This document shows, one piece after another, positions 1,774 to 11,770 of a stretch of 11,770 bases of DNA. Under the pieces are notes generated by a model. The model ran no database searches and was not told where the DNA came from. It saw nothing but the letters and a program-made list of their open reading frames with translations. A program made the position numbers and the translations under genes. This DNA is from a virus: the UHGV virus genome UHGV-0394577; one strand, 5' to 3'. How positions within the stretch are numbered: position 1 is the first letter of the stretch; every line of letters begins with the position of its first letter.

Positions 1774-2828
1774 TGGCAGTCAAAGCAATAGCACTTAACA
1801 CACACCAGCTTTTCGCGTACCTGAATCGCGAGGATATTGCGGAATTTAAATTTAGTCCGCTGTTTACCGCGCTGTTTTTCCCGAACGTGGCGACATTCAA
1901 CACGCAGGACATCATGTTAGATAACCTGGATATTGAAGAAGTCACTATGTCGGCGTTTTGTTCGCCTATGGTTGGCAGCCAGGTTCAGCGCGATAAAGGG
2001 TACGAAACCAGCATTATCCGCCCTGGCTACATGAAGCCAAAACACGAAATCGATCCATTAAAAACAATAATGCGCATGGCTGGAGAAGATCCGGCACAGC
2101 TTAACGATCCTACCTACCGCCGTATGCGCCTGATTACTGGCAACATGCGCCGCCAGATAAACGCCATTAAAGCGCGTGTTGAATGGCTGGCGGTGAATGC
2201 GGTAACGACCGGAAAAAACATCATTGAGGGCGAAGGCATAGAACGCTATGAAATCGACTGGAAGATACCGGAAAAAAACATCATAGAGCAGGCCAAAGGC
2301 CGTAAATGGTCCGAGCAGGATAAAGACATACACGACCCAATCTATGACATTGAGCTATACGCAGATCAGGCAGGTTGCCCCGCCAACGTCATGATTATGG
2401 GCGTTGATGTATGGCGCATGTTACGCAGCTTTAAAAAATTCCGTGAGCTGTACGATCTTTCCCGTGGTTCAGAATCCGCCGCAGAGCTGGCATGTAAAAA
2501 CCTGGGCGAAGTGGTGAGCTTTAAAGGCTATCTTGGTGATCTGGCCCTTATCGTCTATTCCGGCAAATACACTGACAGCGACGGCACAGAAAAATATTTC
2601 CTTGAGCCTGATTTGCTGGTCCTGGGCAACACCAACAATAAAGGGCTGGTGGCCTATGGTGCGATTATGGAACAGGAAGCGGTAAGAACGGGCGCAACGC
2701 AAAACATGTTTTACCCGAAAAACTGGATTGAAGACGGCGATCCGGCGATTGAGTACGTGCAGACACACAGCGCACCGCAGCCGGTACCGGCAGATATTCG
2801 CAAATTTGTTACCGTCAAAATTGGTTAA
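1773..2828 (+). CDS. major capsid protein, phage lambda gpE-like
   Basis: 351 aa; colinear similarity to lambda E recalled from memory (FKFSPLFTALFF, PGYMKPKHEI, DPTYRRMRL, WRMLRSFK, RGSESAAELACKNLGEVVSFKGYLGDLALIVYSGKY, LVLGNTNNKGL, YPKNWIEDGDPA, C-terminal FVTVKIG). Confidence 0.92.
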   Translation: MAVKAIALNTHQLFAYLNREDIAEFKFSPLFTALFFPNVATFNTQDIMLDNLDIEEVTMSAFCSPMVGSQVQRDKGYETSIIRPGYMKPKHEIDPLKTIMRMAGEDPAQLNDPTYRRMRLITGNMRRQINAIKARVEWLAVNAVTTGKNIIEGEGIERYEIDWKIPEKNIIEQAKGRKWSEQDKDIHDPIYDIELYADQAGCPANVMIMGVDVWRMLRSFKKFRELYDLSRGSESAAELACKNLGEVVSFKGYLGDLALIVYSGKYTDSDGTEKYFLEPDLLVLGNTNNKGLVAYGAIMEQEAVRTGATQNMFYPKNWIEDGDPAIEYVQTHSAPQPVPADIRKFVTVKIG

Positions 2829-2839
2829 CGGGGGATTCT

Positions 2840-3175
2840 ATGAACACTCCATACATTGAGTTATTTGCAGGCAGTCAGCAGGTATCAACGACGCTGGTAC
2901 ATTTTGCCGCTGATGCTGGCGTTATTCAGGAATTTACCCCGCTGATGCTGGTGGACAATGGCGAGTTTAAGCCGTGGGATGGTCAGGAATCTGGCAAGGC
3001 TGTTTATCTGACCTCGTACCCCGTGGACACGTCGACGCAGAAATCAGCACAGTGCTACAAGACGGGGATATTCAATATTGCCGCCGTTAACTGGCCTGAG
3101 AGCGTCGACACCGATGCGAAAAAATGCGCCGCCTTTGCGGGTTCTGGCGTATCCGTTCAGCCGCTGGCCCGATAA
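2840..3175 (+). CDS. head decoration protein, phage lambda gpD-like
   Basis: 111 aa (lambda D is about 110 aa); shared motifs TPLML, WDG, YKTGIF, WPE, AFAGSG; SD GGGGGAT. Gene order here is E then D, the reverse of lambda. Confidence 0.8.
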   Translation: MNTPYIELFAGSQQVSTTLVHFAADAGVIQEFTPLMLVDNGEFKPWDGQESGKAVYLTSYPVDTSTQKSAQCYKTGIFNIAAVNWPESVDTDAKKCAAFAGSGVSVQPLAR

Positions 3176-3808: not shown

Positions 3809-4351
3809 ATGAAATCGCACCTGATGAACAAAAAAACTATGGCGCAAAGCTGCCGCGTAAGCGCCACTGCGTTCGATAAGTGGGGAGTAACTCCCGTTGA
3901 GCGTAAAGGCCGTGAGGCGTTTTATGATGTTGCTAGCGTGATAGACAATAGGGTTAACAATGCAATTAACCAGCTTACAAACGACAAAGGCGAGATTGAT
4001 GATGATGAACTTTTACGCGTAAGAATCAGATTAATGACGGCCCAGGCGGAAGCGCAGGAACTTAAAAACGAGCGCGAACGCGGCGAGGTGATTGATACAG
4101 AGTTTTGCATGTACGCGCTTTCAAAACTGGCAAGTCAGATTTCTTCAATCATGGACAGCCTCCCGCTTACTATGCAAAGGAACTTCCCACAGATGCCCCC
4201 CGCTATGCTGCATGGGCTTAAGAGGGAAGTAGTTAAAGCCTGTAATGCCAGTGCCAGAGTTGCCGACAACCTCCCACAGATACTGGCTGATTACTTGAAA
4301 GAAACAACCGGAAACGTACCGGAAAAGTTGCTACAGAAGAAAGGCGAGTAA
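3809..4351 (+). CDS. terminase small subunit, lambda Nu1-like
   Basis: Track ORF 3797..4351 begins at GTG; ATG 3809 follows a GGGGG SD. The middle and C-terminal regions resemble lambda Nu1 (RLMTAQAEAQELKNERERGEVIDTEFCMYALSKLASQISSIMDSLPLTMQRNFPQ; LKREVVKACNASA), while the N-terminal putative DNA-binding region is divergent. Confidence 0.85.
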   Translation: MKSHLMNKKTMAQSCRVSATAFDKWGVTPVERKGREAFYDVASVIDNRVNNAINQLTNDKGEIDDDELLRVRIRLMTAQAEAQELKNERERGEVIDTEFCMYALSKLASQISSIMDSLPLTMQRNFPQMPPAMLHGLKREVVKACNASARVADNLPQILADYLKETTGNVPEKLLQKKGE

Positions 4352-5385: not shown

Positions 5386-5468
5386 GTTTAAAAGTTGAAT
5401 CAGGAACATTCTTTTAAATCATTCAGTTACATGATCAATTAAACTACTCTCGTGCCGACCAAATTGCC

Positions 5469-5494
5469 CACCGGATATCACCGGAAAGCACCGA
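5469..5494. repeat. three direct CACCGGA repeats at 10-bp phasing
   Basis: CACCGGATATCACCGGAAAGCACCGA; the same dimer recurs at 5553-5569 and 7383-7399. Confidence 0.45.
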
Positions 5495-5509
5495 ATAAGA
5501 CAGGGATAA

Positions 5510-5540
5510 CCCGCTAATCACTTGATTGGCGGGTTTTTTT
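5510..5540 (+). terminator. rho-independent terminator (CCCGCTAATC / GATTGGCGGG stem + T7)
   Basis: 10-bp stem (one G-U pair), 4-nt loop, 7 T; sits between the two CACCGGA repeat sets upstream of int. Confidence 0.5.
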
Positions 5541-5552
5541 ATGGTTTTTAGT

Positions 5553-5569
5553 CACCGGATATCACCGGA
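5553..5569. repeat. CACCGGATATCACCGGA direct repeat (second copy)
   Basis: Identical 17-mer to 5469-5485. Confidence 0.45.
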
Positions 5570-5596
5570 TTTATAAGCTATCAGCCGGATTTTTTA

Positions 5597-5644
5597 GTTA
5601 TACGCTTAGTTATACGGGCTGGCGTATAACTAAAGCCGTATAAC
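5597..5644. promoter_or_regulatory. symmetric array of GTTATACG motifs (two direct then two inverted) just upstream of int
   Basis: GTTATACG at 5597 and 5609, CGTATAAC at 5623 and 5637, forming an imperfect palindrome of about 50 bp centred near 5620, 35-85 bp upstream of the int ATG. Candidate integrase arm-type or regulator binding sites. Confidence 0.45.
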
Positions 5645-5679
5645 TAAAACCCTGTTTTTTCGTGTGGAATCATAGACAT

Positions 5680-7624: not shown

Positions 7625-7656
7625 CGGGTATCACAGATATGACGAACACGAAAAAA

Positions 7657-7680
7657 GCGGCCCCGATATGGAGCCGCCTT
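7657..7680 (-). terminator. possible terminator for minus-strand transcripts (5-bp GC stem, then T6 on the minus strand)
   Basis: AAAAAAGCGGC...GCCGCC on the plus strand; on the minus strand the stem is followed by TTTTTT. Weak stem with a long loop. Confidence 0.3.
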
Positions 7681-8000
7681 TCTGAACAATTAACCCGCTG
7701 CGCATTATGTATCAACAAACATAAGCCAGGGCATGATAGCCGCTATCAGGCTGGTGGGCAATGCTATCAGTCTGTTTCAGTGCGTTTCCATAACTGCGAA
7801 GCTCTCTCCTTTGATGAGTATTCTTTAAGGTACTTCTCAAGGGCAAAAGAACACGGCGCGAATCGTTCTGATTCATGCTCTTTCTTTCTGCGTCGTCTTT
7901 TTCGTGCAGGTGATGTTTTTTTGGTTGATTCTTCGTTGGTCATTGTGTGCGCCTGTAAAGCAATGCGCCGGAGTTCCTCACACCACGGCGCTGATAGTTT

Positions 8001-8192
8001 TTATCCTTTGGGTTCTATGCCGCGCCGCTTTAGTTCAGTGCGCCCCAACTCTTTAAGCCAGTTGGCTAGGCTTATGCCGTCGCTCTGTGCTTCTTTGTCG
8101 AATTGCTCTTTTAGCTCTGGAGAAATTCGCATTCTGAATTGTGGGGATTGCCCGTCCCCTTTAGGGCTTTTATCGCGTTTGATTGTTGACAA
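8001..8192 (-). CDS. ribbon-helix-helix (RHH) DNA-binding protein, putative regulator
   Basis: C-terminal FRMRISPELKEQFDKEAQSDGISLANWLKELGR fits the RHH pattern (beta strand then two helices, as in MobC/CopG-type proteins). Proposed start is TTG 8192 with AGGTGA SD; alternatives are ATG 8132 or the track's TTG 8273. Confidence 0.4.
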   Translation of the reverse strand: MSTIKRDKSPKGDGQSPQFRMRISPELKEQFDKEAQSDGISLANWLKELGRTELKRRGIEPKG

Positions 8193-8235
8193 GTGGTCAC
8201 CTATTGAATTAGCCTTTCTATTGTTAGGTGACCAC
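8193..8235. promoter_or_regulatory. operator-like inverted repeat GTGGTCACCT-n23-AGGTGACCAC
   Basis: Perfect 10-bp inverted repeat; each half contains the palindromic GGTCACC/GGTGACC core; located at the 5' end of the RHH gene and upstream of the Ash/Icd operon. Confidence 0.4.
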
Positions 8236-8326
8236 CTTAACACAAGAGCACTTAAAAAAGCAAAGCCCCGCAAGTGTCATTACCACTCGCAGGGCTTCTA
8301 ACCAACAACGTAAACTAGGAGCCGTT

Positions 8327-8524
8327 ATGGTTGCCGTAAATCATATAACACACCTTGTACACACACAAACGGCCTTTGTGTGGCGTTTTCTGGCCCTGAG
8401 TGCCGGAGAATCTCAAATCATCCACGTAACCGCCTGGACGGAACGCGAAGCGCGTAGCCGTTGCCCGTCAGGTTGTGTTGCTGTATTTGCCGCTCGTATT
8501 CGTCAGGGGTCACATCATGCGTAA
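8327..8524 (+). CDS. Ash/Icd-like small protein (P4-type), short paralog
   Basis: 65 aa from ATG 8327 (SD TAGGAG), internal to track ORF 8228..8524. TAFVWRFLALS...VTAWTEREARSRCP...VFAARIRQG is paralogous to the C-terminus of the next ORF and resembles Ash/Icd-like proteins as recalled from memory. Confidence 0.5.
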   Translation: MVAVNHITHLVHTQTAFVWRFLALSAGESQIIHVTAWTEREARSRCPSGCVAVFAARIRQGSHHA

Positions 8525-8984
8525 AAACCGCTTGCAAAAAATTATAACGGGGCTGTATGCTTCCCCCGTCGCCCACATGGCGACCGGGTTTGACAGCCTG
8601 AATACTGTAGCGGACAGCCGCTTACATTCCGATATGCGGTTTTTTTGTGTCCGTAAACCTACCCATACCCGCATTATGGCGGGGCGTAACGGGGGAGCCT
8701 TTGCGCTCGCTGGTTCCTACAGTACCAGTCTGTCAACCCTGTTACGTCTCGCCACCATGTTTGACAGCGTAGTAGCGAGACTCCTTAAAATTACTGTAGG
8801 AGCCTTTCACATGGCTGTATCCGCACGCCCTTACTTTGTCTGGCGCTTTATGCAGTGCCACCACAGCAGCATTGATGTATTCACCGTTACCGCAGCCACT
8901 GAACGCGAAGCACGCGCCCAGCTGCCGCACGCACATCTGATTTTTGTCGCCCGTATTCGTCAGGGGAAAACCTATGCACAATAA
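8517..8984 (+). CDS. Ash-family-like protein, long paralog
   Basis: 155 aa from ATG 8517 (SD AGGGGT); start overlaps the previous stop (ATGCGTAA); C-terminus YFVWRFMQC...VTAATEREARAQLP...IFVARIRQG is homologous to the upstream ORF. Confidence 0.5.
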   Translation: MRKNRLQKIITGLYASPVAHMATGFDSLNTVADSRLHSDMRFFCVRKPTHTRIMAGRNGGAFALAGSYSTSLSTLLRLATMFDSVVARLLKITVGAFHMAVSARPYFVWRFMQCHHSSIDVFTVTAATEREARAQLPHAHLIFVARIRQGKTYAQ

Positions 8985-9195
8985 AACCACACCGGACGCA
9001 GCAGCTGCCGCACTCACTACGCTGATGCACGCACTTATTGATATTGAATGCACAGCAGGGATTGCACAAAAGGAAGAACGGGAAGAATACACATTGTTCG
9101 CCCTGGAATGTATCCGATACACCGCTACGCGGTCGCTGAATGACGCTAAAAATATTCTTATTGCTGATTGTAAAAATGGCGGTGGTTATGCGTGA
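8974..9195 (+). CDS. hypothetical protein (73 aa)
   Basis: ATG 8974 with AGGGGAA SD; overlaps the upstream stop; Ala-rich N-terminus. Confidence 0.45.
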   Translation: MHNKTTPDAAAAALTTLMHALIDIECTAGIAQKEEREEYTLFALECIRYTATRSLNDAKNILIADCKNGGGYA

Positions 9196-9421
9196 TATTT
9201 ACCACGAAACAATATACCGCGCATTTCTTGCACTTTCTCACAGTGAAAATATGTTGGAAATATTGCGCATATGGCTTGAAACACTTGGCGACAATGAATG
9301 CGACAAACAAAAATCAAGAATTGTCACGGCATTAATAACGCTTCTTGAGCCTGTAATAATGGAACTGCAAGAAATAGACCTATTGCACGACAGATATAAA
9401 GAACAGCACACCGGAGAATAA
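9188..9421 (+). CDS. hypothetical protein (77 aa)
   Basis: ATG 9188 overlapping the upstream stop (ATGCGTGA); internal to track ORF 9140..9421. Confidence 0.45.
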   Translation: MRDIYHETIYRAFLALSHSENMLEILRIWLETLGDNECDKQKSRIVTALITLLEPVIMELQEIDLLHDRYKEQHTGE

Positions 9422-9426
9422 AAATA

Positions 9427-9726
9427 ATGAAACTTAAATATCCTGGCTTAACTGCCAGCGGCAAAACTCGCACTAAATTCATGTGCGGGGATATTTACCG
9501 CGATAAGTACGGCGGCACGGTAATGATTAAGAGCGTGGAGGAACGGCGCGTAACTTACCGTCGTGAAGGCTACCAATATGATTGCGTGATGCCTGTTTAT
9601 CAGTTCGAACGTGATTTTTCTCTTGTGCAGGCCGTACCGCGTAACGTGCCCACCAGCAGGGAGAAAGCACGCGCCAATATTCAGGAAATAAGAAAGATGT
9701 TGAACGTATTCAGGGGTAAAAAATGA
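9427..9726 (+). CDS. hypothetical protein (99 aa)
   Basis: ATG 9427 with GGAG 10 nt upstream; stop overlaps the primase start (ATGA). Confidence 0.5.
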   Translation: MKLKYPGLTASGKTRTKFMCGDIYRDKYGGTVMIKSVEERRVTYRREGYQYDCVMPVYQFERDFSLVQAVPRNVPTSREKARANIQEIRKMLNVFRGKK

Positions 9727-11477
9727 AACTTGCACCGAACGTAAAACAGCAGTCACGCGGCATAAAACACAAAGGAACAGAAGTCATTATTTTTGCGGGT
9801 AGTGATGCCTGGTCACACGCTAAACAATGGCAGGAACATGACGCGCGTATGGCCGGAGATAATGAGCCTCCTGTGTGGCTTGGGGATCAGCAGTTATCCG
9901 AACTGGATAAGCTGCAAATTGTGCCGGAAGGCCGAAAATCAGTACGCATATTCAGGGCCGGACATCTTGAACCTGTAATGATAAAGGCGATTGGTCAGAA
10001 GCTGGCGGCGGCAGGTGTACAGGATGCAAATTTTTACCCTGAGGGAATGCACGTTCAGGAGGTGGAGAACTGGCGCGAATATCTGGCCCGTGAGCGCCAG
10101 AATCTTTCTGAAGGTCTGTTCGTTGAGCTTCCGGTAAAGCAAAAGGCGCAACTTTCGCAGATGGCGGACAGTGAACGCGCTCAGCTGCTTTCCGATCGCT
10201 TTGATGGCGTTTGCGTACATCCTGAAAGTGAAATCGTTCACGTATGGCGCGGCGGGGTATGGTGTCCGGTCAGCACAATGGAACTTAGCCGCGAAATGGT
10301 GGCGATCTATTCAGAGCACAGGGCCACTTTCAGCAAGCGCGTAATCAATAACGCCGTTGAAGCGTTAAAAGTTATTGCCGAACCAATGGGCGAGCCGTCC
10401 GGCGATTTGTTGCCGTTCGCCAATGGTGCGCTTGACCTGAAAACGGGGGAATTTTCCCCGCACACGCCGGAGAACTGGATCACCACGCACAACGGTATTG
10501 AGTACACGCCACCAGCACCAGGGGAGAACATCCGCGATAACGCGCCAAATTTTCATAAATGGCTTGAGCACGCAGCCGGAAAAGACCCGCGCAAGATGAT
10601 GCGTATATGTGCCGCGCTGTACATGATTATGGCGAACCGGTACGACTGGCAGATGTTTATTGAGGCCACCGGAGACGGCGGAAGCGGTAAAAGTACATTC
10701 ACGCATATAGCCAGCCTTCTGGCAGGGAAACAGAACACGGTAAGCGCTGAAATGACCTCACTTGATGATGCTGGTGGACGTGCGCAGGTTGTCGGGAGTC
10801 GTCTTATCGTCCTGGCTGACCAGCCGAAATATACAGGCGAAGGAACGGGCATCAAGAAAATCACGGGCGGCGACCCCGTGGAAATTAACCCGAAATATGA
10901 AAAGCGTTTCACGGCGGTAATCAGGGCGGTGGTGCTGACGACCAACAACAACCCGATGATATTCACCGAACGGGCCGGAGGCGTGGCACGTCGTCGGGTT
11001 ATTTTTCGCTTTGACAATATCGTTAGCGAGGCAGAAAAGGACAAGGATTTGCCGGAGAAGGTCGCGGCTGAAATCCCTGTGATTATCCGCCGATTACTGG
11101 CGAACTTTGCCGACCCTGAAAAGGCCCGGGCTTTACTCCTGGAACAGCGCGACGGTGATGAAGCACTGGCAATAAAGCAACAGACGGATCCGGTTATTGA
11201 GTTTTGCCAGTTCCTGAATTTTCTGGAGGAAGCGCGCGGCCTGATGATGGGTGGCGGTGGCGATTCAGTGAAGTACACGACCAGGAACAGCCTTTACCGC
11301 GTCTATCTGGCGTTTATGGCGTACGCAGGCAGGAGCAAACCGCTAAACGTAAATGACTTTGGCAAGGCTATGAAGCCCGCTGCAAAAGTTTACGGACATG
11401 AATATATTACGCGGAAAGTTAAGGGAGTAACGCAGACTAACGCAATAACAACAGACGATTGTGACGCGTTTTTATAA
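9723..11477 (+). CDS. P4-alpha-like primase/helicase replication protein (SF3 helicase domain)
   Basis: 584 aa; Walker A GDGGSGKST, Walker B-like LIVLAD, later VVLTTNN motif; architecture typical of P4-family/PICI primase-helicase; iteron origin immediately downstream. Confidence 0.88.
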   Translation: MKLAPNVKQQSRGIKHKGTEVIIFAGSDAWSHAKQWQEHDARMAGDNEPPVWLGDQQLSELDKLQIVPEGRKSVRIFRAGHLEPVMIKAIGQKLAAAGVQDANFYPEGMHVQEVENWREYLARERQNLSEGLFVELPVKQKAQLSQMADSERAQLLSDRFDGVCVHPESEIVHVWRGGVWCPVSTMELSREMVAIYSEHRATFSKRVINNAVEALKVIAEPMGEPSGDLLPFANGALDLKTGEFSPHTPENWITTHNGIEYTPPAPGENIRDNAPNFHKWLEHAAGKDPRKMMRICAALYMIMANRYDWQMFIEATGDGGSGKSTFTHIASLLAGKQNTVSAEMTSLDDAGGRAQVVGSRLIVLADQPKYTGEGTGIKKITGGDPVEINPKYEKRFTAVIRAVVLTTNNNPMIFTERAGGVARRRVIFRFDNIVSEAEKDKDLPEKVAAEIPVIIRRLLANFADPEKARALLLEQRDGDEALAIKQQTDPVIEFCQFLNFLEEARGLMMGGGGDSVKYTTRNSLYRVYLAFMAYAGRSKPLNVNDFGKAMKPAAKVYGHEYITRKVKGVTQTNAITTDDCDAFL

Positions 11478-11491
11478 TTTTTTGCAATGGC

Positions 11492-11718
11492 TGTCTACCC
11501 TGTCTACCTGAGTAAAGGAAAATACATTTAATTCAGTATATTAAGTTAGGTAGATAGCCTTTTTTCCCTTGTCTACCTGCTGTCTACCCTCTCTACCTGA
11601 TTTTACCTGAACCAGAAAGGGAGGTAGATACGGGTAGATAGTGAATAAAAGCACTCTACCCCGCTGAAAGCCGCGCCATTACTGGAATGGGGGCCAGCAA
11701 GGTAGATAAGGTAGACAA
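11492..11718. repeat. replication origin iterons (TGTCTACC / GGTAGATA, about 11 copies in both orientations)
   Basis: Direct copies at 11492, 11501, 11571, 11581 and 11590 (degenerate TCTCTACC); inverted copies at 11549, 11623, 11633, 11701 and 11711; 9-10 bp phasing within clusters; similar to the P4 ori/crr type I iteron TGTTCACC as recalled from memory. Confidence 0.7.
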
Positions 11719-11770
11719 GGGGAGGCACAACTCAAAACTTTTTAAACGAGGGGGTAAAAATAAATATGCA

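Follow-up and report, generated by a model that had tools for sequence, protein, structure and literature searches.

A C4-type antisense RNA cassette within the Icd-like gene pair heading the primase operon of a PICI-type satellite element

The closest described counterparts of the locus presented here are antisense-RNA systems of phages P1 and P4. In P1, C4 RNA keeps icd/ant from being expressed, and Icd acts as an inhibitor of cell division (PMC8198154); the annotated immI region runs from promoter P1c4 through a1, b1, the c4 RNA, a2, b2 and icd to ant1, which overlaps by an ATGA. Both P1 C4 and P4 CI are RNase P substrates, cut out of a longer leader as stable RNAs of about 77 nt (PMC5499578). 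In P4, as summarised in PMC10111431 (citing Forti 1999), gene eta carries an internal constitutive promoter, CI and seqA lead to early termination, and Kil is a truncated Eta with known division-inhibiting or killing activity. According to the same summary, full-length Eta is made only from an upstream promoter, in coupling with an alpA homologue, and its translation prevents termination. Translational coupling was also described behind IsrK in the IsrK-orf45-anrP locus of Gifsy-1 (Salmonella), where translation of orf45 is needed for the overlapping anrP (PMC4825925). Here we analysed a comparable locus in UHGV virus genome UHGV-0394577, a stretch of 11,770 nucleotides (nt) referred to below as the window. 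At positions 8327-11477, two Icd-like genes head a chain that ends in a P4-type primase. The locus belongs to the known P1 immI/P4 CI-eta-kil type of antisense-RNA control, and we regard it as likely that the region forms a lock of this type on the primase operon of a satellite of the phage-inducible chromosomal island (PICI) type, which coupled translation from the first, solo icd would override.

The key to the locus is a C4 antisense RNA. The two genes concerned are icd#1 (8327-8524, + strand), a solo Icd-like gene of 65 amino acids (aa), and open reading frame (ORF) B (8517-8984, + strand; 155 aa), a P4 Eta-type frame that passes through the RNA cassette and ends in an Icd/Kil-like domain. 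A first-pass annotation, made from the sequence alone, had treated the additional 98 codons of the long copy as part of the protein. No protein domain was found there; the Rfam scan placed an immunity-RNA cassette under these first 98 codons, and the C4 RNA and its targets had been overlooked. The C4/CI-type RNA matched Rfam model RF01695 over its full length (8672-8759, + strand; 71.7 bits for a gathering score of 45, E-value 9.7e-13). By homology to P1 c4, the mature RNA would extend from about 8678 to 8756 (some 79 nt), and its processing by RNase P to a stable RNA is putative. The region displayed an acceptor-like stem with a GCCACCA 3' end, and 12 of the 25 pairs in the consensus fold showed compensatory double changes. 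Sequence b' (UCCUACAGUA, 8715-8724, + strand) lies in a hairpin loop and a' (CUGUCAA, 8730-8736) is single-stranded.

Targets of both C4 loops occur on either side of the RNA. The upstream pair (8555-8610, + strand) consists of a1 (TTGACAG, 8590-8596) and b1 (TACTGTAG, 8603-8610), the downstream pair (8761-8802, + strand) of a2 (TTGACAG, 8761-8767) and b2 (TACTGTAGGA, 8792-8801). The latter overlaps the Shine-Dalgarno sequence AGGAG (8798-8802) of a nested frame, icd#2 (8811-8984, + strand), which is in phase with ORF B and encodes an Icd/Kil-like protein of 57 aa. Pairing was exact between a' and a2 over 7 nt and between b' and b2 over 10 nt. The Rfam match of the upstream pair was marginal (RF03163, c4-a1b1, 8555-8604; 46.8 bits against a gathering score of 46.7), backed by the exact complementarity of a1 and b1 to the C4 loops. 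The a..b target pattern was encountered as a1b1, as a2b2 and, in complement, in C4 itself, and no further C4 targets were found elsewhere in the 11,770-bp element.

Related loci were collected through a DUF4222 query of viral contigs (40 loci) and an Icd-alignment query of genome contigs (one locus). Icd domains were mapped by hidden Markov models across all of them, and 34 (33 from the DUF4222-derived set plus L005) were scanned with Rfam. The 22 cassettes analysed displayed 11 b' variants. Each loop variant had exactly complementary sites of 7-10 nt on its upstream and its downstream side, at constant distances; the exception was an isrK-type cassette common to L007 and L008, where the search for an upstream b site of 7 nt or more was negative. 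On the window-type scaffold, nearly all variation lay in b', a' and the four targets, which changed together: 11 islands with near-identical scaffolds (96% mean column identity among three aligned) carried 7 b' and 2 a' specificities. Together with the compensatory changes in the C4 fold, this covariation is strong evidence for what would be a working antisense system with diversifying specificity. For evolution, the co-varying loops offer a natural set of specificity variants for satellite-satellite immunity.

A putative constitutive promoter lies inside ORF B (8532-8561, + strand), with a -35 TTGCAA (8532-8537), an 18-nt spacer and a -10 TATGCT (8556-8561) that aligned with the annotated TATAGT of P1c4. 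The same geometry was shared by P4 (TTGCCT-18-TATAGT) and the related locus L002 (TTGATC-18-TATGAT). Transcription would start at about 8568, downstream of the ORF B start codon, and it is there that the Rfam isrK model begins (RF01394, 8568-8646; 34.1 bits, short of the 50 bits set as gathering score). This promoter is a putative analogue of P1 P51b/P1c4 and P4 PLE. Between b1 and C4, a weak hairpin with a run of seven T (8615-8646, + strand) resembles the IsrK/P4 seqA terminator but is degenerate; it was conserved in P1 and appeared in the minimum free energy fold.

The order of elements, i.e. promoter, a1, b1, c4, a2, b2 over the Shine-Dalgarno sequence, icd and an overlapping next gene, is that of P1/P7 immI. 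The RNA regions of P1 and the window displayed 80% column identity, and their a'/a sequences were identical. Yet the b' loop and the b targets differed, and therefore the specificity as well. The icd#2 product was 52% identical to P1 Icd (E-value 4e-13). The two loci diverge behind icd, where the P1 operon encodes the Ant antirepressor and the window a set of small unknown proteins and the primase. A further difference is that the frame around the cassette, closed in P1, is open in the window and forms a long ORF that is coupled to the solo icd in front of it.

It is in P4 that this nested organization has its parallel. There too, a long ORF encloses the RNA repressor with its targets and yields the Icd-like Kil as a nested C-terminal product, and a constitutive promoter (putative in the window) is internal to that ORF. 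In both elements the start codon of the long ORF overlaps the stop codon of the gene before it, an overlap of 8-11 nt leads into the gene behind it, and a P4-type primase closes the operon. Structurally, ORF B is the counterpart of P4 Eta and the 57-aa nested ORF that of Kil/Icd. In the P4 sequence, the Rfam C4 model marked CI RNA at 8507-8420 and isrK/a1b1 marked seqA. The old "cI gene product" coding sequence covers CI RNA and has an Icd-like domain at its end (7.8e-21); the full ORF has 214 aa, and its last 65 codons begin at the kil ATG, with which ATG 8811 of icd#2 aligned exactly. In contrast, P4 Kil and icd#2 gave no BLASTP alignment, the P4 cassette is of the IsrK/seqA type and that of the window of the P1 a1b1 type, the upstream coupling partner is an AlpA homologue in P4 and a second icd here, and P4 epsilon had no homologue in the window chain. 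The best reading is that the first half of the module is a P1 immI-like cassette organized in the nested-gene style of P4 eta/kil, which extends both paradigms to this island family and does not overturn current understanding. With Gifsy-1, the locus shares an IsrK/seqA-like leader element and, behind it, a small ORF whose translation the overlapping downstream gene would need. That of the window is below threshold (34 versus 50 bits), and the RNA of Gifsy-1 is an activating small RNA, unlike the C4-type repressor RNA found here.

Both Icd-like domains are real, selected proteins. The homology of the two C-termini, already recognised in the first-pass annotation, was confirmed (44% identity over 55 aa, E-value 8e-12), and of its label "Ash/Icd-like" the Icd part was upheld: NCBIfam NF033153 (host cell division inhibitor Icd-like; cutoff 25 bits) matched icd#1 (64.7 bits, 5.9e-18) as well as residues 107-149 of ORF B (52.2 bits, 4.6e-14), P4 Kil scoring 73.9 bits. 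PGAP likewise annotates both ORFs as Icd-like proteins. The Ash part was dropped, as Pfam PF10554 (Phage_ASH; gathering score 26 bits) did not match icd#1 or ORF B at E-values up to 1, nor the 57-aa nested form at E-values up to 10. The window cassette being of the P1 a1b1 type and not of the IsrK/seqA type, a Phage_ASH match is indeed not expected. This profile did match L002 (46 bits; residues 40-112; 2690-2908) and P4 Eta (82 bits; residues 37-161; L004 8330-8704). Judged from these positions, Phage_ASH amounts to a conceptual translation of the P4 seqA/IsrK and CI RNA region and not epsilon (PF25738), although PF10554 has been used as a P4 "epsilon" marker in satellite surveys (PMC8628076). 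For annotation, the consequence is that the names given to this stretch by PGAP, PHROGs and Pfam ("Icd-like protein", "transcriptional repressor" or "Ash") miss its active element, the C4 RNA with its four targets.

The short copy had also been described as an N-terminally truncated duplicate, a view that does not hold: 65 aa is the usual size in the family (P1 Icd, 73 aa; P4 Kil, 65 aa). It displayed 38% identity to P1 Icd (E-value 4e-8), a pN/pS ratio (nonsynonymous over synonymous polymorphism) of 0.26 among nine orthologues, and its own Shine-Dalgarno sequence (AGGAG, 8317-8321) with no C4 target in front. Its 5' half resembled the start of the L002 long ORF, ORFs of this type opening with a short Icd N-terminal segment, and its 3' half resembled the L002 icd located after C4. 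For this reason icd#1 looks like a recombinant between icd repeats that lost the isrK-C4 segment, rather than like ORF B with its N-terminus cut off; icd#1 and icd#2 come from different cassette lineages. Inhibition of host division or killing of the cell by the icd#1 and icd#2 products is putative, by analogy with the known activity of P1 Icd and P4 Kil.

Behind ORF B the chain continues on the + strand with ORF C (8974-9195, 73 aa), ORF D (9188-9421, 77 aa), ORF E (9427-9726, 99 aa, DUF4222) and the P4/D5-type primase-helicase gene (9723-11477, 584 aa). The overlapping start and stop codons at 8517, 8974, 9188 and 9723 and the short gap noted in the first-pass annotation were all present in the sequence. 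ATG 8517 lies 8 nt inside icd#1, whose stop occupies 8522-8524, ATG 8974 lies within ORF B (11-nt overlap) and ATG 9188 within ORF C (8-nt overlap). ORFs D and E are separated by 5 nt (9422-9426), and ORF E joins the primase through an ATGA (9723-9726, 4-nt overlap). That an Icd-like pair heads a chain ending in the primase was also borne out, profiles having confirmed a P4/D5-type primase and the chain being conserved. Tight junctions recurred in 35 related loci, at distances of -4 (38 times), -8 (36), +5 (32), -11 (26) and +1 (10), so the overlapping arrangement is conserved, despite the fact that the small genes between icd and DUF4222 varied among these loci. The overlap of ATG 8517 with the icd#1 stop was kept in all eight window-type loci and in two of the three double-cassette loci.

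The sequence CGTATTCGTCAGGGG occurs in exactly two copies (8495-8509 and 8952-8966), both ending 7 nt 5' of the following ATG, and dinucleotide-preserving shuffles gave 0 matches. The proposal that 3' coding sequence supplies the next ribosome-binding site was accordingly retained, since the spacing between the GGGG of the ARIRQG codons and the following start codon suits a Shine-Dalgarno sequence. A third TCAGGGG stands in front of the primase start codon (9710-9716); as a Shine-Dalgarno sequence, this motif is thus located 6-7 nt ahead of the ATG at three coupling junctions (8503-8509, 8960-8966 and 9710-9716). The Icd tails beyond ARIRQG differed with the following gene (KTYAQ, VCHVQ, SHHA, VGL and others), which suggests that the conserved ARIRQG/TCAGGGG patch is a recombination joint between modules.

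Upstream of icd#1, a putative regulated promoter was read from the sequence (8186-8215, + strand; -35 TTGACA 8186-8191, -10 TAGCCT 8210-8215), flanked by inverted, operator-like GTGGTCACC/GGTGACCAC repeats at 8193-8201 and 8227-8235. At the same position, L002 displayed a stronger TTGACG-17-TAATAT with three GTGGCTGACAC repeats. The promoter is a putative analogue of P4 PLL. Divergently from the icd operon, a small ORF (8001-8132, - strand) encodes a ribbon-helix-helix protein (Arc/HicB-like), named YlcI/YnfO family in L002, which together with the inverted repeats forms a candidate repressor/operator pair for this promoter. Shortly before icd#1, the terminator scan detected a strong terminator-like hairpin in the leader (8262-8298, within 8252-8298), followed by a T-run on the - strand. 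It was conserved in L002 and might insulate the ribbon-helix-helix gene from antisense transcription. A 669-nt + strand ORF at 7639-8301 (PGAP, L001) is probably no gene: it overlaps the ribbon-helix-helix gene on the opposite strand and had no family match.

On this basis we propose a switch that finally controls the primase. The scheme builds on the observed sequence anatomy, complementarity, covariation and junction conservation, and its promoters, RNase P processing, Rho-dependent termination and override by coupled translation are modelled on P1, P4 and IsrK. In the locked state, the internal promoter (-10 at 8556-8561) would produce an untranslated leader with a1-b1, C4, a2-b2 and icd#2, which would be processed to the ~79-nt C4 RNA, as by RNase P in P1 and P4. 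The a' and b' sequences would then pair with a2 and b2 on new transcripts and mask the icd#2 Shine-Dalgarno sequence. Without translation of this first cistron, the coupled ORFs C and D, DUF4222 and the primase would remain untranslated and transcription would end early, so that the satellite would not replicate. Override would begin at the upstream promoter (around 8186-8215, beside the divergent ribbon-helix-helix gene), whose transcripts would include icd#1, translated from its own Shine-Dalgarno sequence free of any C4 target. Ribosomes ending icd#1 would restart at ATG 8517 and cross a1/b1, C4 and a2/b2 within ORF B. Their passage would block both antisense pairing and termination and hand translation down the chain to the primase. 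The scheme thus provides a concrete model of how the primase operon of an E. coli PICI could be silenced and then switched on.

The override depends on whether the long frame is translated. In 24 of 24 C4 instances the long ORF (165-498 aa) was open across C4 to the icd stop. Its phase relative to the C4 5' end was the same in four loci checked by hand (window, L002, P4 and L007) and different in L006. On five divergent scaffolds, this frame had no stop from the leader start to the kil-like ATG, the other frames having 0-6, and the probability of an open frame after shuffling was 0.018-0.057 per scaffold. Among 11 window-type copies, the N-terminal 98 codons of ORF B had a pN/pS of 1.06 and the Icd part one of 0.45, and +1/-1 insertions and deletions in the RNA region of L006 and L011 were compensated such that the ORF stays open. 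It therefore seems that openness, and not the amino-acid sequence, is selected. The N-terminal 98 codons would then serve as a track for ribosomes rather than as protein, as the analogous P4 idea suggests. We gave up the notion of a spurious ORF for this part in view of the P4 eta precedent and the 24 open frames. The "ash" pseudo-coding sequence of L002 was likewise rejected as a sign of a broken frame, which is open there from 2495 to 3133.

One could nevertheless suppose that the long ORF is never translated, the locus being a plain P1-type c4-icd cassette behind an independent icd, with the 57-aa protein as its only product and 8517-8810 open by chance or composition. The lack of the in-frame extension in P1 and a pN/pS near 1 for the N-part are compatible with this; structured GC-rich RNA moreover has few stops, frame +1 of L002 and L030 also having none. 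But in all 24 instances, from five scaffold families with insertions and deletions, the frame is open (joint shuffle probability about 1e-7 if independent), frameshifts were always compensated, ATG 8517, kept in all window-type loci, follows TCAGGGG at a distance of 7 nt just as the start codon of the next junction does, and P4 Eta is a published precedent, so we consider this explanation rather unlikely. A purely protein-based one, with paralogous Ash/Icd proteins (a two-domain one of 155 aa and a truncated one of 65 aa) co-translated with helper-interference factors and with incidental RNA motifs, is harder still to sustain. Both ORFs are intact and annotated as Icd-like by PGAP, PHROGs families of 188 aa cover the long form and the overlap geometry is conserved. 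Yet the N-part evolves at a pN/pS of 1.06, tolerates local frameshifts, lacks any Pfam or NCBIfam domain and varies mostly in the co-varying C4 loops and the four targets, the C4 match exceeds its gathering score by 27 bits, and 65 aa is a full-length Icd/Kil.

It would also be conceivable that icd#1 is a functionless scar of a deleted upstream isrK-C4 cassette and that the second cassette alone exerts control. Its composition, the start of an L002-type long ORF joined to the end of an L002-type icd, and the existence of full double cassettes in L007, L015 and L040 fit such an origin. However, the gene is intact and under purifying selection (pN/pS 0.26), has retained its Shine-Dalgarno sequence and its 8-nt overlap with the next gene, and about half of the related islands have no icd other than one of its type, all of which makes a mere scar very improbable. 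Several points weigh against the overridable lock itself. Both promoters are weak consensus matches and a consensus promoter scan reported neither; the hairpin and T-run after b1 are degenerate (isrK, 34 bits for a gathering score of 50). Rho dependence and RNase P processing are assumptions carried over from P1/P4, and the P4 details come from a secondary summary of Forti 1999. In P1, the icd frame is closed 11 codons upstream of icd, so that a C4 system can do without an open long ORF, and part of the openness could be a by-product of GC-rich structured RNA.

Four layouts were distinguished among the related islands. Roughly half of the loci have a solo icd without C4, others a single isrK-C4-icd cassette. 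The window's layout, a solo icd followed by a1b1-C4-icd, occurred in eight loci including the window and L001. L007 (2668-3560), L015 (2766-3693) and L040 (2796-3681) carry two full cassettes in tandem, isrK-C4-icd and then a1b1-C4-icd, with different loop specificities, which would place one operon under two antisense locks. In L008, an a1b1 motif (2171-2220) follows the first cassette and no second C4 reached the gathering score; the motif may be the remnant of a lost second cassette. In L003, PGAP annotates a 594-nt "Icd-like" pseudo-coding sequence (1789-2382) upstream of the solo icd, with no Icd, Ash or C4 match.

Islands thus carry zero, one or two copies of the a1b1-C4-a2b2 unit, whose number seems to rise and fall as the repeated 5' and 3' segments of icd recombine. 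We tentatively suggest, as a possible but still doubtful extension of the overridable lock, that this unit is a swappable and fast-diversifying immunity cartridge and that the ORF above it is kept open only for ribosomes arriving from the immunity-insensitive solo icd; a pN/pS near 1 and the compensated frameshifts would then reflect selection on translation itself and not on a protein. If so, these islands would hold a code by which satellites exclude one another, and translation would provide its built-in override. C4 and isrK Rfam matches in such PICI islands were already published (PMC10111431), and the accessible part of that work contains no description of the tandem of solo icd and cassette, of double cassettes or of co-varying loops.

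Of the three small proteins preceding the primase, which the first-pass annotation considered devoid of recognisable function, ORFs C and D indeed matched only PHROGs of unknown function, while ORF E proved to be a member of Pfam DUF4222 (PF13973, 3.7e-24). For ORF C (phrog_5146 and phrog_2512, both of unknown function), no match was obtained in Pfam, NCBIfam, PADLOC or the PDB sequences. It occupies the position of P1 ant and P4 epsilon and resembles neither; homology to epsilon was discarded (BLASTP E-value 2.1, no match to PF25738 (Derepression), a model that P4 epsilon itself matched with 170 bits). ORF D (phrog_2196, 5.1e-40, unknown function) gave nothing in Pfam, NCBIfam, the PDB sequences or PADLOC, and the PDB sequence and PADLOC searches were equally negative for ORF E. 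An AlphaFold model of ORF E (predicted local distance difference test score 75) displayed an SH3/KOW-like barrel with a C-terminal helix, for which Foldseek against the PDB returned generic SH3/KOW-like matches (best E-value ~0.03, not decisive). A role of ORFs C, D and E as helper-interference factors is a guess made from position alone. Wherever the chain could be traced as far as DUF4222, this gene almost always overlapped the next, replicase-sized ORF by 4 nt, and annotated E. coli records name its partner as primase, RepA helicase or DUF927 protein. In the window, this partner displayed the Pfam domains D5_N, DUF5906 and Pox_D5, matched phrog_864 (2.6e-173) and scored 108.6 bits with TIGR01613 (P4-family primase), just below the cutoff of 108.7.

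The window represents a complete element of 11,770 bp, circularly permuted, and shares 92% identity with an island beside tRNA-Pro in E. coli JNEC-KY203 (chromosomal copy L001). A 93-codon ORF (279 nt including the stop) crosses its ends (11766-11770 and 1-274) and matched L001 7288-7566. The element encodes Int, an AlpA-like helix-turn-helix protein, SSB, a PerC-family activator (692-964), a lambda-type major capsid protein E (1773-2828), a gpD-like decoration protein (2840-3175) and a Nu1-like small terminase (3809-4351). Since it carries these last three genes, the satellite brings its own capsid and packaging-specificity functions, presumably aimed at a lambdoid helper. Gram-negative PICIs of E. 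coli, helper-embedded ones included (for example EcCICFT073 and Eco567.11capE), have a similar content, with Int, an AlpA-like helix-turn-helix protein, a primase with iteron origin, SSB, PerC and lambda-type capsid E/gpD/Nu1. We used as PICI criteria a size of ~10-15 kb, an integrase, an AlpA-like regulator, a replicase and origin of its own, a few packaging or capsid genes and integration at a tRNA or comparable site; by size, gene content and tRNA-Pro site, the element classes as a Gram-negative PICI-type satellite with putative helper dependence.

All 11 copies of TCTACC/GGTAGA in the window (2.8 expected window-wide) lie within 220 bp after the primase (11494-11715), a cluster that is a probable iteron replication origin. 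The attP core CTCTCGTGCCGACCA (5447-5461) corresponds to the 3' end of tRNA-Pro, the integration site of the chromosomal copy. Between attP and int (5462-5650), CACCGGATATCACCGGA occurs twice along with several copies of GTATAACTAAA/TTAGTTATAC, and these repeats are likely binding sites for the integrase (arm-type) or for an excisionase.

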